Below are positions 11,210 through 32,824 of a DNA stretch of 64,000 bases, in pieces. The notes beneath the pieces were generated by a model that saw only the letters and a list, made by a program, of their open reading frames with translations, ran no database searches and was not told the origin of the DNA. Origin of the DNA: Phycisphaerales bacterium (GTDB lineage Bacteria; Planctomycetota; Phycisphaerae; UBA1845); the NCBI GenBank assembly GCA_020353195.1, contig CP070691.1, forward strand, positions 1,457,212 to 1,521,211, written 5' to 3'. The position numbers and the translations under genes were made by a program. The first letter of the stretch is position 1. Every line of letters starts with the position of its first letter.

Positions 11210-11235
11210 ATTCGTGTTCTCTTGAGAGAAACATC

Positions 11236-12225: not shown

Positions 12226-12244
12226 ATCGACCCACAGGATCCGA

Positions 12245-12985
12245 ATGACAACGGGCACGATGAAAGACATACGAGTGGTCATACTCGCCGGCGGCAAAGG
12301 AACGCGCCTGAAGCCCTACACGGCTGTCTTTCCAAAGCCGCTCCTGCCGATCGGCGACTGGCCGATCCTGGAAATCGTCCTCAGGCAACTCAAACACTTC
12401 GGTTTCGAGAAGGTCACGTTGGCGGTGAGTCATCTCGCCGAGTTGCTGATGACCTTCTTCGGAGACGGCTCAAAGCTGGGCCTCAGTATCAGCTACTGCA
12501 TCGAGGACAAGCCGCTGGGAACGGCGGGGTCCATCTCCCTGGTTCAGGACCTGACCGACCATTTCCTGGTGATGAACGGAGATCTGCTGACCACTTTAGA
12601 CTACGCCGCTCTTGTGCGGCACCACGTGCGTTCCGGGGCGACGGCTACGATCGGTGCGTTTCCTCGTGACGTCACGATCGACTTCGGTGTCTTGGAGCTC
12701 GGTCTAGATGGTGAGCTGCTGACTTACAAGGAGAAACCTCACTTCGAGTATATGGTCAGTATGGGCGTGAATGTCTTCCACAAATCCGTTTTGGATTTCG
12801 TGCCTCGGGGGCAGTACCTGGACATTCCGACCCTCATGATGACTCTCAAGAATCATGGGAAATCCGTGTCCAGCTACTGGTCAGAATGTGAGTGGTTGGA
12901 CATCGGCCGGCCGGACGACTATGAGCGTGCGCTGTCGGCATTCGAGGAGTCTCCGTCGAAGTATCTGCGAGACGTGCCTGAATGA
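12245..12985 (+). CDS. Sugar-1-phosphate nucleotidylyltransferase
   Basis: 246 aa with the VILAGGKGTRLKPYT signature. An alternative start is ATG 12260. Its stop overlaps the next start (ATGA 12982-12985). Confidence 0.85.
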   Translation: MTTGTMKDIRVVILAGGKGTRLKPYTAVFPKPLLPIGDWPILEIVLRQLKHFGFEKVTLAVSHLAELLMTFFGDGSKLGLSISYCIEDKPLGTAGSISLVQDLTDHFLVMNGDLLTTLDYAALVRHHVRSGATATIGAFPRDVTIDFGVLELGLDGELLTYKEKPHFEYMVSMGVNVFHKSVLDFVPRGQYLDIPTLMMTLKNHGKSVSSYWSECEWLDIGRPDDYERALSAFEESPSKYLRDVPE

Positions 12986-13899
12986 GCAAGCGGGTTCTTG
13001 TGACTGGCGTGTGCGGTTTTGCCGGCCGGCATCTGTGCGAGTATCTTGCCGGTTTGGAAGCGCCCCCTCAGATTATCGGCGCGGATGTGGCAAGTCCGGC
13101 GGCGGCTGAGTGCGAGTCATTCCATCAGATCGATCTGTCTTGCGCGACCGATGTCGCGGATGTTCTCCAGGAGATGGTGCCGGACTACATCATTCATCTG
13201 GCGGGGAGATTCGGATCCCGTGATCCTCAGGAAGTCTACCGGGCCAACGTTCTGTCCATGGCCGCGCTGCTCGAGGGGGCTCGACGGCACGTTCCGAACG
13301 CAGTGATCGTCGCCGCCGGCTCCGCCGCGGAATGGGGTCGGGTCCGCCTCGATCAACTTCCCATTACCGAGGCCGCTCCTTGCCGTCCCGTGACGCCCTA
13401 TGGACTGAGCAAGCTGCTCGCAACGCAGATCGCGTGGTACTATCACAGGGTGCACGGACTGTGCACCATGATTGTCAGGCCCTTTCAGCTGATCGGTAAG
13501 GGCGTCTCCGCGCAGTTGGCGCCGGGCGCCTTCGTTGAGCAATTGAGGCTGGCGATGCGGCAAGGGTCACCGGTGATCCGGGTGGGGAATCTGGAGACGT
13601 ATCGAGACTATCTTGACGTCCGCGACGCCATGAGAGCGGTATGGATGCTGTGCGAGACCCCGGCGGCCGGAGAGAGTTTCAACCTCTGCACAGGCAAGCC
13701 GACGAAGACAGGCGATTTGCTACAGATGATGGTTGAGTCGTGTAACGCGCAGATCACGGTTGAGGTGGATCCTGCACGCCTGCGCGGTGCCAGCGAGATT
13801 CAATGCATCTACGGTGATTACGGGAAGCTCCGGGCGCACAGCGGCTGGGAACCGGAAATCGACCTGGCGCAGAGTGTCCGCGAGGCGCTTCGTGACTGA
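12982..13899 (+). CDS. NAD-dependent NDP-sugar epimerase/4-reductase (extended SDR)
   Basis: 305 aa with VLVTGVCGFAGRHL and YGLSKLLATQ (YxxxK). It is translationally coupled to the nucleotidyltransferase. Confidence 0.8.
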   Translation: MSKRVLVTGVCGFAGRHLCEYLAGLEAPPQIIGADVASPAAAECESFHQIDLSCATDVADVLQEMVPDYIIHLAGRFGSRDPQEVYRANVLSMAALLEGARRHVPNAVIVAAGSAAEWGRVRLDQLPITEAAPCRPVTPYGLSKLLATQIAWYYHRVHGLCTMIVRPFQLIGKGVSAQLAPGAFVEQLRLAMRQGSPVIRVGNLETYRDYLDVRDAMRAVWMLCETPAAGESFNLCTGKPTKTGDLLQMMVESCNAQITVEVDPARLRGASEIQCIYGDYGKLRAHSGWEPEIDLAQSVREALRD

Positions 13900-14014
13900 A
13901 AGCCCGGCCAGACACAGCAAGCCGAGGGGACTCGCCCTGTTTCGTGAAAACCTGCGGCAACGCTCGGACGGCGGCTGACAACGCCGGCCATTGCCTCGTC
14001 TGCCCGTCGCCAAT

Positions 14015-15193
14015 ATGGCTGTGATCTCGACATCGAATCGGCCGCTGCGAATCGCGGTTCTGGCACATAATCTGCGCGCGGCCGGAGGCCTTTCGGTCGG
14101 CCGAAACCTCCTGGCCGCCCTGGCGAAGGCGGCCCCACGTCACTCCTACTTCGTCACGATTCCCACCGGGTGTGGATACGAGGAGATCTGCCGGCAGTTT
14201 CCCAACTGCGAGACAGTCGTCTGCCATCCCGGGGACGGGCTGCTGAAGACCTGGTACTTCGAGACCGTGCAACTGCGCAACAGGATCCTCCCGTTGCGGC
14301 CGGACGTGGTGCTCGCATTGGGCAATCGTGGCCTGCTGAGTCCGCCTTGCCCGCAAGCCGTTCTGATTGCGGACGCGCACTACTCTTATCCGCGCAAGCA
14401 CTACGGCGCGGAGTCTTTTCGAAACCGACTCGTCTTTGCGTACAACGGTTGGTATCTTGGCCGGGTTCTGCGGCACACGAAACTCCTCTTGTGCCAAACA
14501 CCGGTTGCTCAGCGCCGCCTCGTCCGTGCATATGGCTACAAAGGACAAACTGCGGTTTGCCCGAACGCCGTATCGGACTTGCCGTTCGGTGGCGAGGCCG
14601 ATCCGAGCGTACCGCAGGCCCTGGCACCCTACCGCGATCGAATGAAGCTGTTCTGCCTGAGCTGGTACTATGCGCACAAGAACCTGGAGTCCCTCTTCGC
14701 ACTCTTTGCACAATTCTCGCAGGAGCTTGCGGGCGTTGTCGTCGTGACGACGATTGACGCAGATCAGAGCCCGCTTGCGCGGCGGTTCGTCCGGTCGATT
14801 GAACGCTTTGGATTGCAGGATCGCATCGTCAACGTTGGCTTCATCCCGGACGCGCAACTGGCGTCCTACTACCGCCATTGTCACGCACTGTTGCTGCCGA
14901 CTTTTCTGGAAACCTTCAGCGGGACCTATGTGGAAGCCATGCGCTGGGGGCTGCCGATTCTCACGAGCGATCTGGACTTCGCGCACTGCGTCTGCGGAGA
15001 CGCCGCCCTTTACTTCGATCCGTGGAACGTGCGGTCCATGAAGGACGCGATCTCGCGACTCAGGGCAAACCCGGATCTGGGCCGGGAGTTGACAAACCGG
15101 GGTACCGCACGCTTGCAGACAATGTTCAAGTCGTGGAATGAGATCGCCGTGGATCTATCGGGCGAGCTTACAAAACTTGCGCGACTGGGTTGA
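14015..15193 (+). CDS. Glycosyltransferase family 4 (GT-B fold)
   Basis: In-frame ATG 14015 of track ORF 13991..15193. It contains the region ETFSGTYVEAMRWGLPILTSD. Confidence 0.75.
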   Translation: MAVISTSNRPLRIAVLAHNLRAAGGLSVGRNLLAALAKAAPRHSYFVTIPTGCGYEEICRQFPNCETVVCHPGDGLLKTWYFETVQLRNRILPLRPDVVLALGNRGLLSPPCPQAVLIADAHYSYPRKHYGAESFRNRLVFAYNGWYLGRVLRHTKLLLCQTPVAQRRLVRAYGYKGQTAVCPNAVSDLPFGGEADPSVPQALAPYRDRMKLFCLSWYYAHKNLESLFALFAQFSQELAGVVVVTTIDADQSPLARRFVRSIERFGLQDRIVNVGFIPDAQLASYYRHCHALLLPTFLETFSGTYVEAMRWGLPILTSDLDFAHCVCGDAALYFDPWNVRSMKDAISRLRANPDLGRELTNRGTARLQTMFKSWNEIAVDLSGELTKLARLG

Positions 15194-15416: not shown

Positions 15417-16970
15417 GTGTACGTGCTCGGCAAAGATTGGTCGGACGGTTTTCTGGATTACCACCGCGATGATAAGCAGGTGCGTGTCACAGTATCGGCG
15501 TGGCTGTCAGTAGGACCGGTAACGGACGTCTACTACAGACAACCCCGGACCTTCCGAACCGTGTGGAACTACATCCGCGCGCACGGCATCCGTGTGGTCG
15601 CCCAGAAGATCCTCTCCCGCATGAGGGAATCATTGCGAGACCGGCGCGTCTTCGCCGTCGGGCTGGGGACGGTGTGCGAGAGCGATCCCGAGTCCAGTTG
15701 GCCGACCGGGACTCCGGTTGCCTTTGTGGCGCCGATCGCCCCGCCATGCGTGGAGCGCCTGGTGCTGCCGGTGGAGTTCGTCAGGAGAGTCGATGACGGA
15801 CTCGTGGAGCGTACGGCCTCGTCGGAAGGCATCCGATGGACGGAAGGTGGACAGGATCATCTGTGGGACGACGAGTTGGTCGCGTGGGATGCATTCTCCG
15901 GCAGGCCGGTTCCGAAAGAGGCGCTGGATCGCGTGTTCCCGCAGAGCCTTGAGTTCTGGCGCAGCGTGATGCCAGCGCGGGGCAGGGTCCTCCCGTTGCC
16001 AGCTGCCACTCCGATTGAAGAGCGGCTGGCCAAAGCGCAACGAGCTGACGAACGCCTGACCGGTGTCGTCTTTGGTCTCGGGAATCTCGCCAAGGCCACG
16101 TTGATCCCATGCGTAAGACAACACGTCCGCATCGTCTGCGCTCACGAGATCGAGCCAACGCAATTGGGGAAGACGGATCGCCTGCGTTGGTCGGCCGATA
16201 CGAGCCCGGTAATACGGGATGATGAAGATTATGACGTATACTTCATCGCCGGCTATCACCACACGCACGCAGACCTGGCGGCCGAAGCCCTGCGCAAGGG
16301 GGCCTGGGTCGTGTGCGAGAAGCCACTAGTAACTACAGAGCGGGAGTTGGCGGTTCTCCTGGCGGCCGTTCGCGAGCACCCCGGACGGCTCTTCGCGTGT
16401 TTTCAGATGCGGTATGGACCTCTGTGGTCGTACGCCCGCAGCGATATGCGCCTCCGTCCGGGAGATCCGGTGAATTACCAGTGCATCGTGTTCGAGTCTC
16501 CGGTTCCTCGTCATCACTGGTACAACTGGCCGAACAGCCGCAGCCGACTCGTCAGCAACGGGACGCACTGGCTCGATCACTTCCTGTTCATGAACGACTT
16601 CGCCGACGTGACCGACGCCCGCGTGTGGAGATTCCGGAATGAGGACCTGAGCGTCACCGTGGAGTTGGCAAACGGGGCGGCGATGAACATGCTGATCACC
16701 CAGCACGGCAGTCCGCGGATCGGCATTCAGGAGCACGTCGAGCTTCGAGCGAACGATGTGACGGTTCGCGTCGACAACTCGTCTCGATACTCGGCGGAAG
16801 GGCCAGACCGATTCCTGCGGCGGAAGCGGAGCCGGCGGCTGGTCTCACACGAGACAATGTACCGCACGATCTGCCGGAGGATGGTCGCCGGCAAGACGGG
16901 CGACAGTCTGAGGAGTATTGAGATGTCCTGTCGCCTCCTTCTGGATCTGGAGGCGCAGTTGCCGTCCTGA
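15417..16970 (+). CDS. Gfo/Idh/MocA-type oxidoreductase with an unrecognised ~200-aa N-terminal extension
   Basis: 517 aa. The C-terminal half has VVFGLGNLAKATLIP and GAWVVCEKPLVTT (EKP motif). I recognise no family motif in the N-terminal part. Confidence 0.65.
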   Translation: MYVLGKDWSDGFLDYHRDDKQVRVTVSAWLSVGPVTDVYYRQPRTFRTVWNYIRAHGIRVVAQKILSRMRESLRDRRVFAVGLGTVCESDPESSWPTGTPVAFVAPIAPPCVERLVLPVEFVRRVDDGLVERTASSEGIRWTEGGQDHLWDDELVAWDAFSGRPVPKEALDRVFPQSLEFWRSVMPARGRVLPLPAATPIEERLAKAQRADERLTGVVFGLGNLAKATLIPCVRQHVRIVCAHEIEPTQLGKTDRLRWSADTSPVIRDDEDYDVYFIAGYHHTHADLAAEALRKGAWVVCEKPLVTTERELAVLLAAVREHPGRLFACFQMRYGPLWSYARSDMRLRPGDPVNYQCIVFESPVPRHHWYNWPNSRSRLVSNGTHWLDHFLFMNDFADVTDARVWRFRNEDLSVTVELANGAAMNMLITQHGSPRIGIQEHVELRANDVTVRVDNSSRYSAEGPDRFLRRKRSRRLVSHETMYRTICRRMVAGKTGDSLRSIEMSCRLLLDLEAQLPS

Positions 16971-17106
16971 GGGCCCCTGTCAGAATCTGTGGCTGCAGGT
17001 TTGCGACCAGGAGCCCCGCCGATAGAGACCCGGCGCCGCGTGATGGCACCGGATGGCCTTAGCCAGGCGTGCGGTCTCATTCCTTCAGGCGAACCTCCGA
17101 TTGACA

Positions 17107-18372
17107 ATGCGTGTGGCACTAGTCGATGCGTACTTTCTCACCGGCATGGGCTACCAGACGACCGGTTGGCTCCGTGCGCTGGTATCCAGAGGGCACCGTG
17201 TGCGCGCCTTCAGCTCGTGTTACGTGAGCAACATCGTGCGCCACATGTACGAGAAACCGTTTCCTGAAGGGCTCACCCAGGTGGATGGCGGGCAACTGCT
17301 GCGGCTTCCCGCGCGTCAATTGCCGCGAGATATGGTCCGATGCCCGTGCCTTCTCAAGGAAGTGCTGGACTTCGCACCGGACATGACCCTGGCTGCCTAT
17401 CCGGGAACGCTTTTCGCTCGCGATCTGTTCCGCCATCGGGAGGCCCTGCCCGGCCTTCTGTTCAGCACGTTCGCCGAGAACCGGGCCCAGCGCCTCGGCA
17501 CAGCGCCGTTCCGTAGGGCCCTGCTGGACATCGCCTTTCTCGCGCTAAAACGGCGCGACTATCGGCAGTTCATCGAAACGAGCGACGTGGCTATTCTGCA
17601 AACGCCGGACACGTTTGACTTCCTGTTGCCTCGCATTGCGCGGGGGCGACGGCTCGAACGATTGCGCCGCAAGTGTACCCTCTCGGCACTCGGCTTCGAA
17701 GCATTGGTCTTCCACGTCGATCCGGAGGCGCGTGCGGCCGAGCGAGAACGGCTGGGCATTCGGAGCACCGACGTCGTCGCACTCTACGCCTGCAAGATCA
17801 CGCCGATCAAACGGCTGGACCTCTGGGTCTCGGTCATGGCCGGGGCGATGCGGCGCGTCCCAGCGTTGCGGGCTATGCTGATCGGCCTCCGCGATGGCGA
17901 TGTAGAGAGCACGCGGGTCCTGTCGTGGATTGAAGCGACAGGCCTCAAGAATCGATTCATCTGTCTGCCGTTTGCCTCGCGAGAACAATTGCCACGGCTC
18001 TACAACGCCGCCGACCTCGGTGTATGGTACATGCAGCCATCCGTGACGATCCAGGAGGCGATGGGTACCGGTATCTACATGCTGTTGACGGACGCCCGAA
18101 CCGTCTCCCATCTGGTGCTCGATCCGCAGACCGGGCGCTACTTCCCGGCGGGAGACTACCGCCGGCTGGAGCAGCTCATCGTGGATGCCGTGAAGGAATT
18201 TGTTGACGGCGCTGCGTGGAGCTTGCCGGAGGCCCGGCTTCGGCGCGCAAGAACAAACGCGAAGCGGTTCAGCTACGAGGCGTTGACCGAGCAGTTGGCA
18301 GCAGCCGTTCAGGATCCGTCAAATGCTGTGGACCTCTTGGCGCTACCATCAGAGAATAAGGCCCGAGCGTGA
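17107..18372 (+). CDS. GT-B type glycosyltransferase-like protein, paralog B
   Basis: In-frame ATG 17107 of track ORF 17053..18372. It aligns full-length with the product of 9911..11209. Confidence 0.6.
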   Translation: MRVALVDAYFLTGMGYQTTGWLRALVSRGHRVRAFSSCYVSNIVRHMYEKPFPEGLTQVDGGQLLRLPARQLPRDMVRCPCLLKEVLDFAPDMTLAAYPGTLFARDLFRHREALPGLLFSTFAENRAQRLGTAPFRRALLDIAFLALKRRDYRQFIETSDVAILQTPDTFDFLLPRIARGRRLERLRRKCTLSALGFEALVFHVDPEARAAERERLGIRSTDVVALYACKITPIKRLDLWVSVMAGAMRRVPALRAMLIGLRDGDVESTRVLSWIEATGLKNRFICLPFASREQLPRLYNAADLGVWYMQPSVTIQEAMGTGIYMLLTDARTVSHLVLDPQTGRYFPAGDYRRLEQLIVDAVKEFVDGAAWSLPEARLRRARTNAKRFSYEALTEQLAAAVQDPSNAVDLLALPSENKARA

Positions 18373-18445
18373 TGCCGCTACATCGTGACACCGACGGGGA
18401 GGCAGGCGGGCAGATGTCCGTCCGCGAGACGGTTTGGAAACAACA

Positions 18446-20593
18446 ATGAAACAGGTCCTCCAGAGTTTGAAGACCGGACAGATCGACGTGGCGGACGTTC
18501 CGTGTCCGCTGGTGCGCCCGGGACACGTGCTGATCCAAACGCGCGCGAGCCTGATATCGGCAGGGACCGAGCGCAGCTTCGTCGAGTTCGGAAAGGCGAG
18601 CCTGCTAGCCAAAGCCCGGTCCAAGCCGGACAAGGTCCGGCAGGTACTCGACAAGATCAAGACCGACGGTTTGCTTCCGACGCTGGAAACCGTCTTCGCG
18701 CGTTTGGACGAGCCGTTCCCGCTGGGTTATTGCAGCGCCGGCGTCGTGGTCGAGGTGGGCGAAGGCGCCCACGGCTTCGAAATCGGTGATCGCGTTGTCA
18801 GCAACGGTTCGCATGCCGAAATGGTCTGCGTCCCCAGCAACCTTTGCGCAAGAATCCCCGACGGCGTGAGCGACGAAGAGGCGGCCTTCACCGTCCTTGG
18901 AGCGATCGGACTCCAGGGGATTCGCCTGATCGGACCGACCCTCGGTGAGACGATTGCCGTTACTGGCCTGGGGCTGATCGGGTTGATGACGGTACAGATG
19001 CTGCGGGCCAACGGGTGCCGCGTGCTGGGGATCGACCCGGACCCGGCGCGGTGCGAGCTGGCCCGGCAGATGGGGGCCGAAACCGTCGATCTGTCCGCCG
19101 GCGCCGATCCCGTCGCCTCAGCGATGGCTTTCTCCCAGGGGCGCGGCGTCGACGGAGTGGTCATTACGGCCGCGGCCAGCACCGACGAGATCATGCACCA
19201 GTCCGCGCAGATGAGTCGCAAGCGCGGTCGGATTGTCCTGGTCGGCGTCGTGGGGCTGAAGCTGACGCGATCCGATTTCTACGAGAAGGAGCTGACGTTC
19301 CAGGTGTCGTGCTCGTACGGGCCCGGCCGCTACGACCCCGCCTACGAAGATCGCGGCCTGGATTATCCGATCGGCTTCGTACGCTGGACCGAACAGCGGA
19401 ACTTCGAGGCGGTTCTCGAGCTCCTCGCCTCCGGACGACTGGACGTCGAACCGTTGATCAGCAAGCGGATCGAACACAGCCGGGCGGTCGAGGCCTATCA
19501 GTCGCTGACGGAGCAGCGCGACGCGCTCGGCATCCTCCTGACGTACCCTCACGGCAGGGCGGCCTCTACGAGCGCTGCGCCGGTCATACGCACCGACCGC
19601 ACGCCGAGCAAGATCGGTCCGGCGGTCGTCGGCGTGATCGGTGCCGGCGACTTCGCCAAGCTGTTCGCTTTTCCGAATTTGATCAGGACTGGGGCTCGTC
19701 TGGCTTGTGTCGCCGACGTGAACGGCGTGGCGGCAGCGCACGCGGGCAGGAAGTTCGGTTTTGAACGGACAACAAGCGATTATCGGCACGTCTTGGACGA
19801 TCCGCAGATCAATACGGCGATGGTCCTGACACGGCATGATGCGCACGCGCCGATCGTCTTGGAAGCGCTCCAGGCGGGCAAGCATGTTATGGTGGAGAAG
19901 CCCCTCTGTCTGGAACCTGGGCAACTGGACCGCATCCGCGAAGCGTTCCTCTCAGCGCAGGACTGCCAGCTGGCGGTCGGATTCAATCGCCGGTTCTCGC
20001 CGCACGCGTTGAAGATGAAATCGCTTCTCGCGACCCGAACGGAACCGCTTTGCATGAGCATGATGGTCAACGCCGGCGTCGTGCCGCCGGACGTGTGGGT
20101 CCACGATCCGAAGGTGGGCGGCGGACGAATCCTCGGCGAGGGCTGCCATTGGATTGATCTGATGTCGTTCCTCGCGGGCGCACCGGTCATCCGTGTATTC
20201 GCGACGAAGATCGGCACGGCAGGCGGCGTCGCCGTCCGTGAGGACAAGACGAGCATCACGCTGTGCCTCGGTGACGGATCGATCGGGACGCTTCACTATT
20301 TCGGAAGCGGGCACAAGTCGTATCCGAAAGAAACAGTCGAAGTCTTCTGCGACGGCAAGGTGCTGCGTCTGGACAACTTCAGGATGCTGCGCGGTTATGG
20401 GTGGCCTGCGTTCAAGAGCATGAGGCTGCGTCGCATGGACAAGGGACACCGCGAGGAGTACGTCCAGTTCGTCCAGGCCGTCGAGAGCGGCGGGCCGCCC
20501 CTGATCCCGTTTGAGGAAATCGAGAACGTCACGCGGGCGACCTTCGCCGCCGTCGAGTCGGCCGCGTCGGGCGAGCCTGTTGACGTCGAGTGA
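18446..20593 (+). CDS. Bi-domain oxidoreductase: N-terminal zinc-type alcohol dehydrogenase (MDR) fused to C-terminal Gfo/Idh/MocA domain
   Basis: Track ORF 18434..20593; ATG is at 18446. The MDR part has GHVLIQTRASLISAGTE and VTGLGLIGLMTVQM. The GFO part has VGVIGAGDFAK and GKHVMVEKPLCL. Confidence 0.8.
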   Translation: MKQVLQSLKTGQIDVADVPCPLVRPGHVLIQTRASLISAGTERSFVEFGKASLLAKARSKPDKVRQVLDKIKTDGLLPTLETVFARLDEPFPLGYCSAGVVVEVGEGAHGFEIGDRVVSNGSHAEMVCVPSNLCARIPDGVSDEEAAFTVLGAIGLQGIRLIGPTLGETIAVTGLGLIGLMTVQMLRANGCRVLGIDPDPARCELARQMGAETVDLSAGADPVASAMAFSQGRGVDGVVITAAASTDEIMHQSAQMSRKRGRIVLVGVVGLKLTRSDFYEKELTFQVSCSYGPGRYDPAYEDRGLDYPIGFVRWTEQRNFEAVLELLASGRLDVEPLISKRIEHSRAVEAYQSLTEQRDALGILLTYPHGRAASTSAAPVIRTDRTPSKIGPAVVGVIGAGDFAKLFAFPNLIRTGARLACVADVNGVAAAHAGRKFGFERTTSDYRHVLDDPQINTAMVLTRHDAHAPIVLEALQAGKHVMVEKPLCLEPGQLDRIREAFLSAQDCQLAVGFNRRFSPHALKMKSLLATRTEPLCMSMMVNAGVVPPDVWVHDPKVGGGRILGEGCHWIDLMSFLAGAPVIRVFATKIGTAGGVAVREDKTSITLCLGDGSIGTLHYFGSGHKSYPKETVEVFCDGKVLRLDNFRMLRGYGWPAFKSMRLRRMDKGHREEYVQFVQAVESGGPPLIPFEEIENVTRATFAAVESAASGEPVDVE

Positions 20594-20603
20594 GCCCCAC
20601 GTG

Positions 20604-21725
20604 ATGGCCCCCTGCAATCGGATGTTGAGGATCCTGCATACGGTTCCGGGCCGGGCAATATGCGTTCAGCCGGACGGCACGCTATACGGTAGCCGGAAAT
20701 ACGCCGTCTACCGCAGCCACGATGACGGGAACGCCTGGACGAAGATCACCGCGGTACCGCGCGGCTTCACGCGGTGGATGGCGGAGCACTCGCGGATGGC
20801 GTGCCGCCTTCTTCGCCACGAGATCCGCGCATTTCGGGTGCTGTCGACCGGACGATACGTCGCCGCTAACCGGGAGTCGGTGTTCCACGCCCGCCCCGGC
20901 GAACCGACGATGACGCAGAGCCGGATTGAACAAGGCACCCAACCGGTCGCGCCGCCGATGTCCATCACCGTCGGGCCCGGCGACCGGGTTCTCTGGGGCG
21001 AATACACCGGCAGCGATCGGATACGCCGGGAGATCCGGATGTACGTCTCGGACGACGCAGGATGCACGTACAACGAGTTCCATCGGTTCGCGGCGGGTAG
21101 CATCCGGCACGTCCATAACCTCTACTACGACCGGGGGCTGGATCAATACTGGGTGCTCGTGGGTGACCACGATGAGGAGCCGGGCATCGGCCGGCTCTCA
21201 GCAGACCTTGAGCATTTCGAATGGGTCGTCAAGGGCAAGCAGATCTTTCGGGCGGTATGCGTCCTGGATTTCGGCGATCGTCTGGTGTATGGGACGGACA
21301 CCGAGATGGAACCCAACGCCGTGATGAGCCTCGACAAGAAGACCGGTCGGGTCGAGCGGATCTTCGAGACGAACGGAAGCTGCATCTACGCTTGCCGTTT
21401 CGGCGGCTGGTATGCGCTGACGACGACCGTGGAACCGTCGACAGTCAACCTGTCCCGGAACGCGACGCTGTGGCTGTCCCGTGACGGCGATCGATGGCTG
21501 GCGGCCTTTGAAGCGCCCATGGACCGCTGGAGCGGGAAGTATTTTCAGTTCAGTTCGTTGGTGCTGCCGTGCGACGGGAGCGATCGCGAGGTGATCGCGT
21601 TCAGCGGCCAGGCGGTACGCGACGTCGACGGCAAGCTCATCGTTGCCGAGCTGGCGGGACAGGGTGACGTGCTGGACCCGGCGCAGCACCACCGTCACCG
21701 CGGCGAGGGAAGCAAAGAAACCTGA
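20604..21725 (+). CDS. Hypothetical Asp-box (BNR)-repeat protein, probable beta-propeller
   Basis: In-frame ATG 20604 of track ORF 20511..21725. It has three Asp-box-like motifs: SHDDGNAW, SDDAGCTY and SRDGDRW. I see no signal peptide. Confidence 0.55.
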   Translation: MAPCNRMLRILHTVPGRAICVQPDGTLYGSRKYAVYRSHDDGNAWTKITAVPRGFTRWMAEHSRMACRLLRHEIRAFRVLSTGRYVAANRESVFHARPGEPTMTQSRIEQGTQPVAPPMSITVGPGDRVLWGEYTGSDRIRREIRMYVSDDAGCTYNEFHRFAAGSIRHVHNLYYDRGLDQYWVLVGDHDEEPGIGRLSADLEHFEWVVKGKQIFRAVCVLDFGDRLVYGTDTEMEPNAVMSLDKKTGRVERIFETNGSCIYACRFGGWYALTTTVEPSTVNLSRNATLWLSRDGDRWLAAFEAPMDRWSGKYFQFSSLVLPCDGSDREVIAFSGQAVRDVDGKLIVAELAGQGDVLDPAQHHRHRGEGSKET

Positions 21726-23758
21726 TGTCCGTCAGACACGGCCTGGGGTTGGTGCGGTCGTTCGGTCCAAAGTGGATGTTGTGGCGCATCGGGTACGCGC
21801 TGCGTAAGAAGAGCGGCCTGATGAAACGCAGATTCCCGACGGTCGCATTCGGTGACGTGCGACTGGCCGATCTCGTGCATGACGGCACGCCGACGATGGC
21901 CGACGACTACCGCGTCTTCCACGAGGCCGGTCCAGGGCGATTCTTCTTCGAGCCGGGGCGATTGCCCCCTGCCGATGTGTTGAAGAAGTTGGTTTCGCCG
22001 TGCGGAGCCAAACGCACACTTGCCGTCGCGGACGATTACTGCTGTGGGCGTTTTCTTTTCTACAGCAATCACGCGCACGATCTGGGGCAGCCGGTCAATT
22101 GGCTGCTGAATCCGTTCAACGGCGCCGTGCACGGTACTCGAACGCACTGGTGTGATTACCCCACGTTCGCGGCCGAAGCCGGCGACATCAAGGACGTCTG
22201 GGAGCCGTCGCGGTTCGCCTGCGCGTTCTGGCTGGCGCGCGCGTATGCGTTAACGGGCGATGAGAAGTACCCGGAAGCTTTCTGGGCGCTGTTTGAGTCG
22301 TGGTGTGCGCAGAACCCGCACAACATGGGCCCCAACTGGAAATGCGGACAGGAGACCGCTCTGCGGTCCATGGCGTGGTGTTTCGCCCTGTACGCCTTCT
22401 GGAACGCATCCGCCACCACCGCGGACCGGATCATCACCATGGTCAAGGTGCTTGCTCTTCAGGCGAGCCGCATCGCCGACAACATTGGCTACGCCGTCTC
22501 ACAGAAGAACAACCATGCTTTCAGCGAGGCGGCTGGGTTGCTCACAACCGCCTTGTTGTTCCCCGAACTGAAAGGGGCGACACGTTGGGCAGCCACTGGG
22601 CGCCGCGTGCTCGAGAGGGAGGTGCGCCGACAGGTGTACACGGACGGCGGTTACGTGCAGCAGTCCATGAACTATCACCGGGTCATGCTCCACGACTGCA
22701 TCTGGGCGATCCGCCTGGCGGAGTTGAACGGGCGATCTTTCTCGGCGGACCTGGTGAGGCGCGTAGCCTGTGCCGCCGAGTTTCTGTATGAGATGCTAGA
22801 TCCCCCAAGTGGTCGAGTGCCGAACTACGGGTACAACGACGGCGCGTTGGTGCTTCCACTCAGCCCGTGTGACTACCGGGATTATCGCGCGACGGTCCAG
22901 GCGGCGAGATATCTGGATGCAGGCGAGCGCGTTCTGCCTGCCGGGCCGTGGGACGAGATGCTGCTGTGGCTGTTCGGAACCGATGCACTTTCCAGGAAGC
23001 AGTCGACGATCGCGCCGACCTCGCGGCGATTCGACGTCGGCGGCTATTATACCCTGCGCGCGCGGGACAGCTGGTGCATGGTCCGCTGCTACACTTATGT
23101 CGACCGCCCCGCCCACGTAGATATGCTGCATCTGGACCTGTGGTACAAGGGTGTGAACGTCCTGGGCGATAGCGGAACGTACCGCTATTTCGCTCCTGAT
23201 GATCCACCGATCGAACGGTATTTCAAGGATATCGCGGCTCATAACACGATCGAGATTGACAACCGCGGCCCTTTGGAGCTGTTCGCCAGGTGGGTGTGGT
23301 CCCCGTGGCCGAAGGCCAGCTGCCTGGCACATGACGACGACCGCTGGCAGGGTGAACACTACGCCTATGCGAGACGGCCGTGGAACGTAGTGCATCGGCG
23401 TCACGTACGGTCGGCTGATGAACACAACTGGCTCGTGACCGACGATCTTCTGGGCGCAGGGCGACATGACGTGAAGATCCGCTGGCATCTGGCCGATGAG
23501 GCCGTTCGCCCGGATCCGGGCCGCCGCCGCATCGACATGGATGTACCGGGCGGACGCGTTAGCCTGACGGTCGAGACGCCGGACGGGTTCTCGATGGCGA
23601 TACACCGTGGCCGGCGCGATGGGGGCAACGTCGGCGGCTGGGAGTCCGCGTATTATGGCGCGTACACGCCGAGGCCGACGGTGGAGGTGGCCGGACTTTG
23701 CACACTGCCGGCGCGATTCGTGACTCGTATCTCTCTCCACGAGGCTACCGTTCCATGA
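21725..23758 (+). CDS. Heparinase II/III-like (alginate-lyase superfamily) protein
   Basis: 677 aa. It contains WEPSRFACAFWLARAYALTGDEKY...NWKCGQETALRSMAW and HVDMLHLDLWYKGVNVLGDSGTYRY, as in heparinase II/III family proteins. Its start overlaps the previous stop (TGATG), and its stop overlaps the next start (ATGA 23755-23758). Confidence 0.65.
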   Translation: MSVRHGLGLVRSFGPKWMLWRIGYALRKKSGLMKRRFPTVAFGDVRLADLVHDGTPTMADDYRVFHEAGPGRFFFEPGRLPPADVLKKLVSPCGAKRTLAVADDYCCGRFLFYSNHAHDLGQPVNWLLNPFNGAVHGTRTHWCDYPTFAAEAGDIKDVWEPSRFACAFWLARAYALTGDEKYPEAFWALFESWCAQNPHNMGPNWKCGQETALRSMAWCFALYAFWNASATTADRIITMVKVLALQASRIADNIGYAVSQKNNHAFSEAAGLLTTALLFPELKGATRWAATGRRVLEREVRRQVYTDGGYVQQSMNYHRVMLHDCIWAIRLAELNGRSFSADLVRRVACAAEFLYEMLDPPSGRVPNYGYNDGALVLPLSPCDYRDYRATVQAARYLDAGERVLPAGPWDEMLLWLFGTDALSRKQSTIAPTSRRFDVGGYYTLRARDSWCMVRCYTYVDRPAHVDMLHLDLWYKGVNVLGDSGTYRYFAPDDPPIERYFKDIAAHNTIEIDNRGPLELFARWVWSPWPKASCLAHDDDRWQGEHYAYARRPWNVVHRRHVRSADEHNWLVTDDLLGAGRHDVKIRWHLADEAVRPDPGRRRIDMDVPGGRVSLTVETPDGFSMAIHRGRRDGGNVGGWESAYYGAYTPRPTVEVAGLCTLPARFVTRISLHEATVP

Positions 23759-24972
23759 GATTGGTCTACATCCATCAGCATTTCGTCACCGGTGACGGCT
23801 TCGGCCCCAATCGCAGCTACGACGTGAGCAGATACCTGGTGAGAATGGGCCACGAGGTGATCATGATCTGCGGCATCTACTGGCAAAGTGGCCTCGAGAA
23901 GATGCCGTGGTGGCGCCTGTTCCGCGTCCAGTGGATTGATGGCATCAAGGTCGTCGTCTGCAACGTCCCTTACCACAACAAGATGCGCGTCCCCGCGAGA
24001 ATGTGGGCTTTCCTGAAATTCATGATCTTGGCGACCGTAGCGAGTTTGTGGCAGCGCAAGGTGGATCTCGTATTCGCTACGAGCACACCGACTACCGTCG
24101 GCGTCCCCGGTCGAGTGTCCGCAACACTCAAGCGGGTGCCTTATGTCTTTGAGGTGCGGGACCTGTGGCCCGAGGATCTTCTGGCCGCAGATCGAATCAA
24201 GCCGGGATTCGAGTACAAGGTCTGGGAATGGCTGGAGAGCTTCAGCTACAAGACCGCGCGGAAAATCCTCTTGGTCTCCCGAGGTTTTCACGATCGGCTG
24301 CTGGAACGTGGTTTCCCGCCCCAAATGCTCGAGACCATCGTGCTGGGCGCGGATGGCGCGCTGTTTGCCGATTTGAAACCCAATCACGACTACATCAGGG
24401 AACACGGACTGGATGGCAAAACCATCGCGGTGTACGCGGGATCGATCAGCGATGCCAACGGACTTTACCAGGTGATCGACGCCGCCGAGTACCTGCGGGA
24501 TCGCCCCGACATCGCCATCGTGCTGATCGGTGACGGCCGGTCGCGCGCCGGGCTTGAGGCCAAGGCCACGGAGAAGGGGCTGACGAACGTGTACTTCTTG
24601 GATCCTCTCCCGAAGAAAGATCTCGTCCATGTCATGGCCGCATGTCACATCGGGCTGATGATCCTCAAGCCGATTCGCCGGCCTCGGTGGGTCACGCCGA
24701 ACAAGATCTTCGACTACATGTTCACCGGGATCCCCAGTGTTGTGAACTACGCAGGCACCACGGCCGAGCTCGTTGAACAGGAAGATGTGGGACTGGCCGC
24801 CGAACCGCATTCGGCGGAGGATCTTGCGGCCAAGATCATCTACTGGGCCGATCATCCCGAGCAGCGCGCCTCCGTTGGGCGCCACGCACGCCGGACGGCA
24901 ATGAGTAAGTACGATCGCACGATCATTGCCCAGAGACTGTCCGACGTATTCCAACAGTGCCTGCAACCATGA
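23755..24972 (+). CDS. Glycosyltransferase family 4, WbuB-like
   Basis: In-frame ATG 23755 of track ORF 23698..24972. The N-terminus MRLVYIHQHFVTGDGFGPNRSYDVSRYLVRMGHEV is typical of WbuB-type GT4 enzymes. Confidence 0.75.
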   Translation: MRLVYIHQHFVTGDGFGPNRSYDVSRYLVRMGHEVIMICGIYWQSGLEKMPWWRLFRVQWIDGIKVVVCNVPYHNKMRVPARMWAFLKFMILATVASLWQRKVDLVFATSTPTTVGVPGRVSATLKRVPYVFEVRDLWPEDLLAADRIKPGFEYKVWEWLESFSYKTARKILLVSRGFHDRLLERGFPPQMLETIVLGADGALFADLKPNHDYIREHGLDGKTIAVYAGSISDANGLYQVIDAAEYLRDRPDIAIVLIGDGRSRAGLEAKATEKGLTNVYFLDPLPKKDLVHVMAACHIGLMILKPIRRPRWVTPNKIFDYMFTGIPSVVNYAGTTAELVEQEDVGLAAEPHSAEDLAAKIIYWADHPEQRASVGRHARRTAMSKYDRTIIAQRLSDVFQQCLQP

Positions 24973-25023
24973 CCGCTGGCTAACCGAATCTCCATCTCCA
25001 CGCCCGAGACAGTCTTGAACAAA

Positions 25024-26103
25024 ATGCCCATGGCCAGGCAGTACTGGACAAATCGATTGGCGCGCCCGGAGGACACGTTGGCCATTCTGGATCTGGTAAA
25101 GACGGTTTACGCCGACCGGTCGAGCCTGACTCGAGACTACTGGGAATGGCGCTACCACAGCGCGACGGAGTTCCGCGCCGACACTGTCGTGGCCGAGCAC
25201 CAGGGGCGCCCCATCGGGATCCAGCCCGTCGCGATTTTCGACTTCCAGCAAGGGAAAGACCGGCTCAAAGGAGCCATGTACACCGGTGCGCTTACGCATC
25301 CGGCCCACCGCCGGCACGGCGTCTTTCGCTCTGTTGTCACCGGCGCCAATGAACATGCCGCTAAACGTGGCGCGCAGTTCAGCATGACGATGCCGAATGA
25401 CGAGTCGCTGCCGGGATTCATCCGCTTCGGCGAATGGGAGTCCCCGGGGCTCATCCCGTTGTATCTGAAGGTCGCGGATGGCCCGGCGATGCTCAGGTCC
25501 AGAATGGGCCGAGTGGCCGCAGCGCTGACGGGAGGGTTGCCACAATTGCCGTTCCGGGGCCGGCGCGACGCGGGACGCAGTCCCCTTCTGGATTGCGAGC
25601 AGGTCCCTTGCGCGCCGGACGACTTGGACGACGCGTTCGACGCGTTCGCCCGCGACGCCGAGGCGCTGATGATCCGTCGGACAGCCGCATATTGGAACTG
25701 GCGCTATGCGGCCCGCCCCGGCGCGCCCTACCGCATGCTGGTCGCGCGACGCGGGGGGCGCATGGTGGGCGCGGCGGTAACGTCGGTGCAGAGGCGCATG
25801 GGATTGGACGTCGGAATCGTGCTCGACCTGGTGGCCCGGGGCGGAGTCCTGAGCCTGCGGTGCCTCTTGCGAGAAGCGGAAAGGACACTCGTTTCGCGCG
25901 GCGTCGGCCTGGTCGCTTGCCAGGCTACCAGTTCCATCCTGCGCCGTGCCCTGCGGGACGCCGGCTTCTTGTGCCCAAAGCCGGCCTGGTTGCCCAAACG
26001 GTTTCATTTCGTGTACCGCACGACGGGGGTCCCCGGGCTTCGTGCCCGACCAGGCGAACTGGGAGACTGGCACCTGACTCTCGGCGACTCGGATAACGTA
26101 TGA
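25024..26103 (+). CDS. Large GNAT-type acyl/acetyltransferase (~360 aa, possibly FemAB-like)
   Basis: Track ORF 25015..26103 (TTG). ATG codons are at 25024 and 25030. It has the acetyl-CoA-site-like motif HPAHRRHGVFRSVV. Confidence 0.6.
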   Translation: MPMARQYWTNRLARPEDTLAILDLVKTVYADRSSLTRDYWEWRYHSATEFRADTVVAEHQGRPIGIQPVAIFDFQQGKDRLKGAMYTGALTHPAHRRHGVFRSVVTGANEHAAKRGAQFSMTMPNDESLPGFIRFGEWESPGLIPLYLKVADGPAMLRSRMGRVAAALTGGLPQLPFRGRRDAGRSPLLDCEQVPCAPDDLDDAFDAFARDAEALMIRRTAAYWNWRYAARPGAPYRMLVARRGGRMVGAAVTSVQRRMGLDVGIVLDLVARGGVLSLRCLLREAERTLVSRGVGLVACQATSSILRRALRDAGFLCPKPAWLPKRFHFVYRTTGVPGLRARPGELGDWHLTLGDSDNV

Positions 26104-26978
26104 TCCATGCGCTGACAATCGATGTTGAGGACAATCACCGCATCGTTGCCCGAAACCTGCTGGGGCGCGACGGCCCGCCCACCCAAGCGGTTGTCGAGAA
26201 CACCACCCGGCTGTTGGAACACCTTCGAAAGCGCGGCGTACGCGCCACATTCTTCGCGCTGGGGGAGGTGGCGGCGACGTTCCCCGGACTCATTCGAGCC
26301 ATCTCCGAAGACGGCCATGAACTCGGTGTCCACGGGTACCATCATCAGGAAGTGCACAAGCTCGATGTTCGGGCTTTCCGCAGAGAGGTCATCGACGCCA
26401 AAACCCTGATCGAGGATACCTCCGGAACTCGCGTCCGGGGGCATCGCGCTCCGACGTTCTCCATCACCCCGGATACGCGTTGGGCCCTCGATGTACTGGC
26501 CGAGGCGGGCTTCGCCTATGATTCCAGCATCTTCCCCATACGAAGTCGGCGGTACGGCTGGCCCGGACTGCCGCTCGATATTCACGAGATGCACCTGAAC
26601 GGAGACCGGCGCATCATCGAAGCGCCCTTGTCGGTGGTGACCATCCTGGGGAAACGTCTGCCTGCCTGCGGCGGCGGGTATCTGCGCCACTTTCCGTACC
26701 GGTACACGGATTGGGCGATGCGGCGTATCCAGCGCACTCGCCCGGTCATCGTCTATCTGCACCCGTACGATATCGATACCGTGCCGCCCCCGGGCTGGCT
26801 CCAGGAGGCGCTCGCCGCCGCCGGCGGTCCGACGAAGCGCTACCTCGCCCTTCAGCAGCGGAATCGCCACACTGTCGAGTCGAAACTGCTCCGCCTTCTG
26901 GAGAGCTTCCGGTTCGCTCCCTTGCGTGACGTTATTGAGCAGACGATAGGGTCCGGGCCCCGCGGCGAGCCGTCGTGA
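26100..26978 (+). CDS. Polysaccharide deacetylase (DUF3473 / PEP-CTERM-locus type)
   Basis: 292 aa with HALTIDVEDNH and HELGVHGYHH. Its start overlaps the previous stop (ATGA 26100-26103). Confidence 0.8.
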   Translation: MIHALTIDVEDNHRIVARNLLGRDGPPTQAVVENTTRLLEHLRKRGVRATFFALGEVAATFPGLIRAISEDGHELGVHGYHHQEVHKLDVRAFRREVIDAKTLIEDTSGTRVRGHRAPTFSITPDTRWALDVLAEAGFAYDSSIFPIRSRRYGWPGLPLDIHEMHLNGDRRIIEAPLSVVTILGKRLPACGGGYLRHFPYRYTDWAMRRIQRTRPVIVYLHPYDIDTVPPPGWLQEALAAAGGPTKRYLALQQRNRHTVESKLLRLLESFRFAPLRDVIEQTIGSGPRGEPS

Positions 26979-27139
26979 GGCGGTCCCCTGTCGGCGGGCG
27001 ACAATGAGATATCGGTGGCGCGCGATTTGTGTAAGTTGCGGCTGTGTGAACCGGAAACCAGGATGTGAGTCGGCTGCAAGGTCAGGATGCACATCCCGAC
27101 CATCCAGGAGCCGGAGCCTTGCCCGTGAGCGACCAGCCT

Positions 27140-27793
27140 ATGTCGTCCAGCCGTCAGCGCTGCGGCGCAGACAAGCAGCAGTCCGAAGATGTGGCGATCA
27201 CGGCTCTCCGCGCCGAGCACACGAATGCTGTCGTCGATCTGCACATGCAGGCGTTCCCGGATTTCTTCTTGACGTTTCTCGGGCGTTCGTTCCTGCGGCA
27301 GATGTATCTGTGCCACCGGGATGACCCCGCGACAATCGCGCTGGTCGCCTCCCGGAAAACGGATGACGAAATCCTCGGCGCCGTAATCGGCCCCCTTCAG
27401 GCAACCAGCTTCTACAAGCGGATCCTGGTCAGGCGATGGTGGCGATTCGCGCTGGCGGCACTGGGGGCTGTGCTTCGCAGACCGTCCGTTGTTCCTCGGC
27501 TTCTTCGGGCCGTACGCTACCGGGGAGACGCGCCGGGCGGCGAGACAGACAGGGCGCTGCTCGCCTCGATCGCCGTCAGCCCGGCGGCGCAGGGCATGGG
27601 CGTGGGCAAGTTGTTGACCACGGCTTTCCTAGCCAAGGTCAGGGAGGCGGGGCTTCCCGGGGCATATCTGACCACGGATGCCGAGAACAACGACGCGGTG
27701 AACGCGTTCTACCGGCGCCAGGGGTGGAAGGTGGAGAGCCGCTTCACCACACCCGAGAAACGCAAGATGCTCCGCTACATCTATGATTTCTGA
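27140..27793 (+). CDS. GNAT family N-acetyltransferase
   Basis: In-frame ATG 27140 of track ORF 27065..27793. It has the motif A sequence IAVSPAAQGMGVGKLL. Confidence 0.7.
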   Translation: MSSSRQRCGADKQQSEDVAITALRAEHTNAVVDLHMQAFPDFFLTFLGRSFLRQMYLCHRDDPATIALVASRKTDDEILGAVIGPLQATSFYKRILVRRWWRFALAALGAVLRRPSVVPRLLRAVRYRGDAPGGETDRALLASIAVSPAAQGMGVGKLLTTAFLAKVREAGLPGAYLTTDAENNDAVNAFYRRQGWKVESRFTTPEKRKMLRYIYDF

Positions 27794-27804
27794 GGCTGGC
27801 TCGG

Positions 27805-28974
27805 ATGAAGTCTCGAGTCCTTGAACGATACGAACGCGCGTTCGCCGCCCGACTCGGCGTCAAGGGAGCATTTGCGTTCTGGAAGGGACGGGTGGCCGCA
27901 TATGCAATTCTCAAAGCCCTCGGTGTTGGCGAGGGTGACGAGGTTGTGGTCCCGGGATACACCTGCGTGATGGCCGTCAACCCGATCGTATACCTCGGAG
28001 CCAAACCCGTCTTCGTGGACATCGAACCGGTCACATACAACATCGACGTAGCCCTCCTTGCCAGGAGCATCACGCCCAGGACCAAATGCATAATGGCCCA
28101 ACACACTTACGGATACCCGGCCGACATGGACGCCATCATGGATATCGCTGACGGCAAAGGGTTGCCCGTGGTCGAGGACTGCTGCTTGGCGTTGGGTTCG
28201 GAGTACAACCGTCGCCTGGTGGGTACATTCGGCGCGGCGGCGTATTTCTCCTTCCAGTGGAACAAACCCTACACCAGCGGCCTCGGCGGAATGGCCGTGA
28301 CCGGCAACCCGGAACTGGGGTCGCGGATCGAAGCGCTCCAGCGGGAGTCGATCATCCCCGGCACCAAGGAAGTGATGATGCTCGCCGCGCAGTTGGCGGT
28401 CTACCGGACCCTGGTGTATCCACGCACGACCGCCCTGGCGCAAAACATCTTCCGCTCCCTGGGTAAAGCAGGCTTGGTTGTTGGCTCGTCCAGCAGCGGA
28501 GAATTCGTGCCGGTCATGCCGGACGGTTTCTTCAAGCGTATGAGTGAGTTGCAGGCGCGCTCCGGACGGCGCCAACTGCAAGCTCTGAGCCGGAACATCG
28601 CCCATCGACGGCGACTGGCCCGCCTGTACGACGATCGACTGCGCGAACTCGGGTGGCCCGTCCCGCGGCTGTCGTCGAAGGCAGACCCTGCCCTGGTTCG
28701 CTACCCCGTCCGGGTGGTGGATAAGCAGCGCGCCCTGGCCACCGCGGCAAAGCGCTTCGTCGAGCTGGGCAGCTGGTTTGAATGCCCGCTTCATCCGATC
28801 GAGACCCCGATGGACGCGTACGGGTACCACACCGGCATGTGTCCGGAAGCGGACAAAGCGAGCCGCGAAGTCGTCAATCTGCCGCTTCATCCGCGGGCTG
28901 ACGAAGGCACGGTTCGCCGATCGGTCCACTTCATTGCCGGGATCGGACCACCCGCTCCGGCAGGCGGATCGTAA
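27805..28974 (+). CDS. DegT/DnrJ/EryC1/StrS PLP-dependent aminotransferase (second copy)
   Basis: 389 aa with GDEVVVPGYTCV and the PLP-lysine region FSFQWNKPYTSGLGG. Confidence 0.85.
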   Translation: MKSRVLERYERAFAARLGVKGAFAFWKGRVAAYAILKALGVGEGDEVVVPGYTCVMAVNPIVYLGAKPVFVDIEPVTYNIDVALLARSITPRTKCIMAQHTYGYPADMDAIMDIADGKGLPVVEDCCLALGSEYNRRLVGTFGAAAYFSFQWNKPYTSGLGGMAVTGNPELGSRIEALQRESIIPGTKEVMMLAAQLAVYRTLVYPRTTALAQNIFRSLGKAGLVVGSSSSGEFVPVMPDGFFKRMSELQARSGRRQLQALSRNIAHRRRLARLYDDRLRELGWPVPRLSSKADPALVRYPVRVVDKQRALATAAKRFVELGSWFECPLHPIETPMDAYGYHTGMCPEADKASREVVNLPLHPRADEGTVRRSVHFIAGIGPPAPAGGS

Positions 28975-32765: not shown

Positions 32766-32824
32766 GGCGGGCGGGCAAGCGAAACGGTCCGCACCGTCGC
32801 GGATCGAACCGACAGGAGTAAGCC

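Follow-up and report, generated by a model that had tools for sequence, protein, structure and literature searches.

We analysed a stretch of 64,000 nucleotides from a Phycisphaerales bacterium (contig CP070691.1, positions 1,457,212 to 1,521,211; this whole stretch is called the window, and positions below count from its first letter). The window contains an ordinary surface-polysaccharide cluster of the Wzx/Wzy type, and the subject of this account is its far half, at positions 15417–28974, above all the part that encodes a bi-domain dehydrogenase, a heparinase-like protein and a WbuB-like glycosyltransferase (GT) of family GT4. An original prediction, made from the DNA sequence, had listed ten open reading frames (ORFs) in this half; all ten are present and co-directional, lie at or near the positions given for them, and have significant family matches:

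15417–16970, + strand: GFO/IDH/MocA oxidoreductase with an N-terminal extension (GFO_IDH_MocA at residues 217–326; EKP motif at residues 301–303)
17053–18372, + strand: GT paralog B (Glycos_transf_1, E-value 1e-09)
18434–20593, + strand: dehydrogenase with a medium-chain dehydrogenase/reductase (MDR) domain and a GFO/IDH/MocA (GFO) domain (Pfam ADH_N/ADH_zinc_N and GFO_IDH_MocA)
20601–21725, + strand: Asp-box beta-propeller (no Pfam family; all-beta propeller in an AlphaFold2 (AF2) model, mean predicted confidence, pLDDT, 88)
21725–23758, + strand: heparinase-III-like protein of polysaccharide lyase family 12 (PL12) (Hepar_II_III_N, 2e-30; Hepar_II_III_C, 4e-34)
23755–24972, + strand: WbuB/WcaI-like GT4 (best matches of the WcaI/WbuB type)
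25015–26103, + strand: Eis-like tandem-GNAT N-acyltransferase of 362 residues (Acetyltransf_9, E-value 1e-12)
26100–26978, + strand: polysaccharide/sugar de-N-acetylase (Polysacc_deac_1 and DUF3473)
27065–27793, + strand: small GNAT (Acetyltransf_1)
27805–28974, + strand: DegT aminotransferase, DegT2 (DegT Pfam match)

The dehydrogenase, the heparinase-like protein and the GT4 constitute a widespread module that has already been named in other bacteria; the window holds a planctomycete variant of it, supplemented with the propeller, the tandem GNAT, the DUF3473 deacetylase and the extended GFO enzyme.

The MDR half of the dehydrogenase is zinc-less, with SAGTE and PLGYC standing where the Cys and GHE motifs would be. 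Comparison of 45 orthologs demonstrated that this half retains GLGLIG and the acidic residue after β2, and that the GFO half retains GAGDFA, EKP, GFNRRF and GGG..GEGCHWID; the dehydrogenase therefore possesses two intact NAD-binding sites. Library matches of the MDR domain include PIG3, acryloyl-CoA reductase and crotonyl-CoA reductase.

The heparinase-like protein finds its best PDB sequence match in 4fnv (1.7e-21) and shares its two-domain fold family with the PL12 heparinase III enzymes (Pedobacter HepC, Bacteroides BT4657; 4mmh, 4fnv, 5jmd). Three invariant elements of its family, N263-H264, Y317-H318 and H506-N507-T508, align with the NH, YH and HNT motifs common to these enzymes. This conservation suggests that the capacity to remove the C5 proton from a uronate is intact; residues are assigned to roles here as in toroid-fold lyases generally. 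The PL12 heparinase III enzymes are secreted catabolic lyases, whereas the window protein is predicted to be cytoplasmic and is encoded in a biosynthetic operon: sequence prediction detected neither a signal peptide nor a transmembrane (TM) segment in it or in the other cassette proteins. Identity with the HepC equivalogs was considered and rejected on model scores (NF045572, 76.4 bits against 600; NF045573, 70.3 bits against 700), as was a catabolic HepC role, the N-terminus not being hydrophobic and the neighbors all being biosynthetic. The protein belongs to a long-form clade of ~660–680 residues with a conserved basic N-terminus.

Database proteins exist in which the heparinase-like domain is joined with AsnB, with a Glycos_transf_4 phosphoglycosyltransferase, with a GT4 or with a GNAT. 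Fusion proteins noted among the relatives are P0461, P0390, P0367, P0341 and P0331. Many unfused homologs carry the name ‘asparagine synthase (glutamine-hydrolysing)’ in JGI annotations, perhaps in error; AsnB::heparinase-like fusions do exist.

Between the dehydrogenase and the heparinase-like gene lies the propeller gene. Its listed ORF starts at 20511, and the start at 20601 was chosen from the lengths of its homologs, some of which carry the names sialidase or BNR in databases. One database homolog, from a Phycisphaerales metagenome-assembled genome, is 100% identical to the window propeller. The protein displays the Asp-box motifs SHDDGNAW and SDDAGCTY, and a structure search returned generic propeller matches only (template-modelling score about 0.55). 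The propeller and heparinase-like genes meet in a TGATG stop-start overlap, the heparinase-like and GT4 genes in an ATGA overlap at 23755, and the tandem GNAT and deacetylase genes in a further ATGA overlap; these three overlaps suggest translational coupling.

To map the cassette across genomes, 85 related loci (80 are species-representative genomes) were searched by tblastn with the window proteins, and genes within ±10 kb flanks were scored as co-located. The heparinase-like gene is accompanied by the WbuB-like GT4 at 72 of the 85 loci and by the bi-domain dehydrogenase at 49, and less often by the propeller (20/85), the tandem GNAT (15/85) and the DUF3473 deacetylase (15/85). That a bi-domain oxidoreductase, a heparinase-like protein and a WbuB-like protein recur together in glycan loci, as had been proposed, is thus borne out, and far from being absent or unlinked in all relatives, the block shows linkage far beyond chance. 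On a Phycisphaerae chromosome the order is dehydrogenase, heparinase-like protein, GT4, tandem GNAT, DUF3473 protein and GNAT; in a putative Hodarchaeota metagenome-assembled genome (MAG) it is dehydrogenase, a 352-residue protein, heparinase-like protein, GT4, ATP-grasp protein, DUF3473 protein and 2-epimerase. Two strict peptide patterns identified at least 402 relatives of the heparinase-like protein on contigs representing one genome per species, and an exhaustive search placed its family at 2,302 clusters (50% identity) at E ≤ 1e-30. The homologs are abundant in Planctomycetota and occur in biosynthetic operons in at least seven phyla, mostly in environmental bacteria.

An ATPgrasp_Ter-type ligase lies 3′ of the GT4 at many of these loci (L001, L004, L007, L008, L010, L013–L015 and L017); the window has no such ligase. 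It replaces the tandem GNAT in some related cassettes and accompanies it in others, and locus L003 encodes a phosphoglycosyltransferase with a fused ATP-grasp domain.

A well-studied counterpart emerged from a tblastn search against plasmids, with matches on 132 Ralstonia megaplasmids, within the eps operon. In this operon, genes for a phosphatase, a kinase, EpsC, EpsD, two transporters, a transferase and an acyltransferase are followed by the trio, namely a dehydrogenase (713 residues), a heparinase (612 residues) and a ‘glycosyltransferase WbuB’, and then by genes for a sugar transferase, an acetyltransferase and an aminotransferase. A few genes 5′ of the trio, epsC encodes a UDP-N-acetylglucosamine (UDP-GlcNAc) 2-epimerase and epsD a UDP-N-acetylmannosaminuronic acid (UDP-ManNAcA) dehydrogenase. 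Identities between the window and Ralstonia proteins are 54% for the dehydrogenase (full length, 709 residues), 31% for the heparinase-like protein and 37% for the GT4 (full length). The order of the trio in the Ralstonia solanacearum eps operon is that of the window, except that a propeller is inserted in the window, and both loci possess a 2-epimerase, a DegT aminotransferase and acetyltransferases. Unlike the window, the eps operon possesses a UDP-ManNAcA dehydrogenase and a short-form heparinase-like protein, and it lacks the propeller, the tandem GNAT and the DUF3473 deacetylase. The uronic acid of the Ralstonia extracellular polysaccharide (EPS) termed EPS I is said to have been assigned the L form by Orgambide and co-workers in 1991. 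EPS I is composed of N-acetylgalactosamine (GalNAc), N-acetylgalactosaminuronic acid (GalNAcA) and an N-acylated trideoxy-diamino sugar (PMC12819619).

The same kind of pair is found in Pseudomonas aeruginosa PA14, where zbdP-hepP (PA14_23420/23430) form an operon; ZbdP is composed of an MDR domain (residues 9–373) and a GFO domain (residues 402–714), and HepP has no export signal (PMC5732420). By these published descriptions, the domain architecture is as in the window pair, although the PA14 system has been published as a virulence-related heparinase. The hepP mutants are attenuated, with delayed pellicle and biofilm formation, and the operon is present in PA14 and absent from PAO1, PAK and PA103 (PMC5732420). 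The PA14 O-antigen is -4)-a-L-GalNAcA-(1-3)-a-D-QuiNAc-(1-3)-a-L-Rha (PMC2997053; QuiNAc, N-acetylquinovosamine; Rha, rhamnose), and the PA14 ‘heparinase’ paper makes no mention of O-antigen (PMC5732420). The strain distribution of zbdP-hepP looks serotype-like, and an O-antigen defect may underlie both the attenuation of hepP mutants and their delay in forming pellicles and biofilms. We take zbdP-hepP to be situated in the PA14 O-antigen locus.

In Acinetobacter venetianus the pair is called WeeE/WeeF, equivalent to A. baumannii GnlA/GnlB, the postulated makers of UDP-L-GalNAcA for the RAG-1 capsular polysaccharide (PMC9676051). WeeE is taken as an MDR plus GFO protein through its >85% identity to GnlA. 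The supplement of a 2026 A. baumannii preprint reports GnlA as ADH_N with a GFO-like GH188 match and an MDR structure that spans 40% of the protein, and GnlB as PL12 with a heparinase III fold. The GnlA and GnlB genes are adjacent in Acinetobacter K loci, and we liken them to the window pair by this reported architecture. In Vibrio vulnificus, mutants in VV0357 (a dehydrogenase) and VV0358 (heparinase-like) display capsule-deficient phenotypes (PMC6037467). The window possesses what marks a GnlA/GnlB plus WbuB-like module: a bi-domain dehydrogenase, a signal-less PL12 protein and an immediately following GT4.

Around the trio, the far half of the window locus encodes further enzymes. In the first of these, the extended GFO enzyme, the Rossmann domain begins only at residue 217, behind an N-terminal region of ~210 residues that is kept in five orthologs. 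A Pfam scan and a PDB profile search of this region yielded nothing at or below E = 0.09, in agreement with the earlier description of an unrecognised extension of ~200 residues. Orthologs of the extended GFO gene stand directly 5′ of the bi-domain dehydrogenase gene at five of the 85 loci (L029, L034, L048, L063 and L066). GT paralog B is 54% identical to GT paralog A (9911–11209), and the presence of both in one locus points to an internal duplication.

The 362-residue acyltransferase had been described as a GNAT/FemAB-like protein of about 360 residues; the GNAT part of this description holds, and the fold is that of an Eis-like tandem GNAT rather than FemAB. Its AF2 model (pLDDT 91) finds its best Foldseek matches in 2i00, 2ozg, 3n7z, 2hv2 and Eis2, with N-myristoyltransferases also among them. 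The FemAB label was discarded, as no match to PF02388 or PF13480 was found even at E ≤ 10, with the PDB profile search and the AF2/Foldseek comparison pointing the other way. At the end of the locus, the FQWNKP motif of DegT2 holds a lysine that aligns to the SK motif of the proximal aminotransferase DegT1; an insertion of ~45 residues follows the aligned lysine, and Pfam reports the DegT match in two stretches. By its residues, DegT2 looks intact and of a divergent subgroup. Orthologs of the small GNAT and DegT2 occur together at loci L007 and L063, and the short contig of locus L020 shows the GNAT ortholog alone.

Taken together, a functional model for the module emerges. On balance, we consider it probable that the dehydrogenase, the heparinase-like protein and the GT4 form a cytoplasmic module for the synthesis and transfer of an acidic amino sugar in the L configuration, with N-deacetylation and re-acylation to follow. 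From the gene identities, the predicted cytoplasmic location, the linkage, the Ralstonia homology and the fusions, we infer a substrate, a product and a mechanism as follows. A UDP-linked N-acetylhexosaminuronic acid of D-manno configuration, of the UDP-ManNAcA type, would be converted, by inversion at C3 and C5, to an epimer of the L series such as L-GalNAcA or a sugar close to it; L-GalNAcA and D-ManNAcA differ at these two carbons. One redox domain of the dehydrogenase would oxidize a ring hydroxyl (at C3, possibly at C4), and the other would reduce the keto carbon from the opposite face. The lyase-fold heparinase-like protein would take and return the C5 proton beside the carboxylate, with no elimination. 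The WbuB-like GT4 would move the L-sugar onto a lipid-linked acceptor; WbuB-type GT4s transfer N-acetyl-L-fucosamine (L-FucNAc), which is 6-deoxy-L-GalNAc. The DUF3473 deacetylase, the tandem GNAT and the small GNAT could then swap the N-acetyl group for another acyl group, and the extended GFO enzyme, a DegT aminotransferase and a GNAT might provide a second keto-to-amine-to-amide route that adds a second amino group. The loci without the dehydrogenase would be consistent with a modular scheme in which the heparinase-like protein alone yields a C5 epimer. As to precursor supply, the window opens within a gene for a UDP-GlcNAc 2-epimerase (1–228).

More tentatively, and as a possibility to which we give less than even weight, the PL12 fold may have been recruited as a cytoplasmic C5-epimerase that, with the dehydrogenase and, in this clade, the propeller, acts as a new type of 3,5-epimerase for uronates linked to a nucleotide or a lipid. 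In planctomycetes, the cassette with its additional extended GFO enzyme, DUF3473 deacetylase and tandem GNAT would then give an undescribed, unusually N-acylated L-(di)amino uronic acid. A mechanistic precedent is offered by the heparan-sulfate glucuronyl and alginate C5-epimerases, lyase-related enzymes that remove and return the C5 proton (PMC3901696). Their substrates are polymers located in the Golgi or outside the cytoplasm, and the likeness to the window protein is one of mechanism.

Several observations weigh against this model. The link to L-GalNAcA is correlative: it comes from three organisms with GalNAcA polymers, the L form being shown for two. The dehydrogenase was undetected near the heparinase-like gene at 36 of the 85 loci, some of them AsnB-rich, and the pair is thus not obligatory. 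No UDP-HexNAc 6-dehydrogenase was detected in the 64-kb window by tblastn with two queries, the locus being cut at its 5′ end. The long-form clade is only 27–35% identical to the Ralstonia heparinase-like protein, and the window product may therefore differ. In a commercial assay, heparin-degrading activity was reported for recombinant HepP (PMC5732420), and the 2026 A. baumannii preprint reads the heparinase fold as suggesting ‘a different functional role’. The literature searched contained no reconstituted biochemical function for the dehydrogenase/heparinase-like pair; to this extent the original prediction, which held that no function is established for it, was right, although the pair had already been named and given postulated roles. 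The roles suggested here are guesses for the propeller, the N-terminal domain of the extended GFO enzyme, the deacetylase and both GNATs.

Among the alternatives, the one that survives best is a modified uronic sugar produced by a different chemistry, which we regard as unlikely: a true 4,5-elimination, with the MDR domain reducing the resulting double bond, or a reaction on a lipid-linked oligosaccharide. In favor of this alternative are the fully kept PL12 catalytic motifs, the enoyl and quinone reductases among the MDR relatives, the phosphoglycosyltransferase and GT4 fusions, which put the heparinase-like protein at the membrane, and the conserved basic N-terminal segment of the long-form clade. 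An elimination would give a 4-deoxy or otherwise unusual sugar; the PA14 polymer, however, contains intact 4-linked L-GalNAcA rather than a 4-deoxy sugar, and by established chemistry a free 4-OH leaves poorly.

Less probable still, to the point of being quite improbable, is an AlgL-like role, in which the heparinase-like protein would work in the secretion pathway as a lyase that trims polymer or clears it when misdirected. The V. vulnificus authors proposed such a role for VV0358 (PMC6037467), and the lyase fold and motifs, together with the capsule-deficient mutants, accord with it. Two lines of evidence argue against this role: i) neither the window protein nor HepP has a signal peptide, and the window protein has no TM segment, and ii) the domain is fused to cytoplasmic AsnB, GT4 and GNAT partners, and its gene is translationally coupled to that of a cytoplasmic GT4.

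The block had also been read as bearing the hallmarks of an EPS locus of the PEP-CTERM/exosortase type; that it is such a locus, with the exosortase elsewhere in the genome, we hold to be very improbable and reject. A loose compositional likeness to such loci does exist (a deacetylase, an acyltransferase, an AsnB-like protein, a Wzy_C protein and GT4s), and the deacetylase is nearest to TIGR03006, with which it shares the Polysacc_deac_1 plus DUF3473 architecture. None of the four proposed marker families reaches its curated threshold, however: the deacetylase scores 241.6 bits against the TIGR03006 cut-off of 276.2 and is a close relative below threshold, the AsnB-like amidotransferase reaches 37.9 where TIGR03108 requires 816.9, the supposed FemAB-like protein has no match to TIGR03019 (NCBIfam, E ≤ 1e-3) and is Eis-like, and the Wzy_C match of the O-antigen-ligase-like protein is generic. 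The PEP-CTERM glycosyltransferase models TIGR04063/03088 give no more than 112 bits where 409–442 are required, so that the PEP-CTERM/XrtA families as a whole (TIGR03006, TIGR03019, TIGR03108, TIGR03087/03088/04063) are either below cut-off, most of them far below, or unmatched. No exosortase was found among the scanned genes of the 64-kb window, four predicted genes being without a match at the thresholds applied, which agrees with what had been said of the block. The trio also occurs in the Ralstonia eps operon and a comparable pair in PA14; to our knowledge, neither locus is exosortase-linked.

Least probable of all is a genuine heparin/heparan-sulfate lyase that attacks glycosaminoglycans of a host or of the environment, the role published for HepP on the strength of the activity of the recombinant protein in a commercial assay and the attenuation of hepP mutants (PMC5732420), since the HepC models give 76 and 70 bits against 600 and 700, an export signal is lacking, the biosynthetic operons span at least seven phyla with no sulfatase or polysaccharide-utilisation context, and loss of O-antigen or EPS alone would explain the mutant phenotypes.

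The remainder of the glycan locus lies 5′ of the block, and its features in the window are as follows:

1–228, + strand: 3′ end (76 residues) of a UDP-GlcNAc 2-epimerase (PF02350 Epimerase_2, 38.8 bits against a cut-off of 30.6)
364–1398, + strand: GFO protein resembling UDP-GlcNAc 3-dehydrogenase (NF040723, 165 bits; best PDB sequence match 7bvj)
1411–1995, + strand: hexapeptide acetyltransferase (NeuD/PglB-type, 77 bits)
2013–3089, + strand: DegT aminotransferase, DegT1 (DegT Pfam E-value 3e-119)
3112–4647, + strand: Wzx-like flippase with 12 TM segments (hydrophobic-segment count; weak MATE/Wzx-like match)
4840–6729, + strand: divergent AsnB-like PP-loop protein (SGGLDS PP-loop at residue 269)
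6961–8454, + strand: Wzy_C polymerase/ligase-like membrane protein with 10 TM segments (Wzy_C, 39.5 bits)
8502–15193, + strand: TuaC-like GT4, GT paralog A, LegB-like 4,6-dehydratase, sugar-1-P nucleotidyltransferase, SDR epimerase/reductase and a further GT4

The epimerase fragment covers positions 279–345 of the 347 of the PF02350 profile and shares 44% identity with the Epimerase_2 gene that adjoins the cassette at locus L004. As the window opens inside this gene, the glycan locus is cut at the 5′ edge of the window; its 3′ boundary is at 28974, with rsgA beyond. Both a flippase and a Wzy-type polymerase are present, as expected of a Wzx/Wzy-dependent locus. Neither an initiating phosphoglycosyltransferase nor a chain-length regulator was found at 1–28974, the locus continuing 5′ of the window; these two and the uronic-acid dehydrogenase, all apparently missing, may lie upstream.

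The arrangement at 1–3089 recalls WlbD/A/B/C (WbpI/B/D/E), a route to 2,3-diacetamido sugars. The proximal DegT gene was listed as an ORF at 1626–3089, overlapping the acetyltransferase gene, and its start is probably near 2013. The AsnB-like protein lacks the N-terminal catalytic Cys (MPGLSL stands in place of MCG), and its Asn_synthase match of 19.9 bits falls under the gathering threshold of 21; by these features it is probably a glutamine-independent amidoligase. Among the genes at 8502–15193, TIGR04180 reaches 423.3 against a cut-off of 475.

The genes beyond 28974 are of the housekeeping kind, among them rsgA, two copies of groEL, dnaJ and grpE. A chaperone cluster at 30624–36484 comes right after the glycan locus and consists of groEL, a 104-residue ORF (likely groES), the second groEL, dnaJ and grpE. 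At 58932–61238, a sulfate adenylyltransferase gene adjoins one for an NrnA-like oligoribonuclease/PAP phosphatase; no sulfotransferase was noticed in the glycan locus. Four genes have no NCBIfam match at E ≤ 1e-8: 37324–38961 (545 residues), 42366–43613 (415 residues), 43767–44687 on the − strand (306 residues) and 49453–52500 (1015 residues).

The window is a single example from an uncultured MAG, and PA14 or Ralstonia is better suited to experiment. Its cassette brings the HepP ‘heparinase’, WeeE/WeeF-GnlA/GnlB, the Ralstonia eps operon and VV0357/VV0358, previously separate literatures, together as one conserved module under one hypothesis. The O10/O19 O-antigens of P. aeruginosa and the capsules of Acinetobacter contain L-GalNAcA and related L-hexosaminuronic acids, the wilt-causing EPS I of Ralstonia contains GalNAcA, and the literature searched held no demonstrated synthesis pathway for these sugars. 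Many annotations of cytoplasmic proteins as ‘heparinase/alginate lyase’ in biosynthetic loci are probably functional misnomers.

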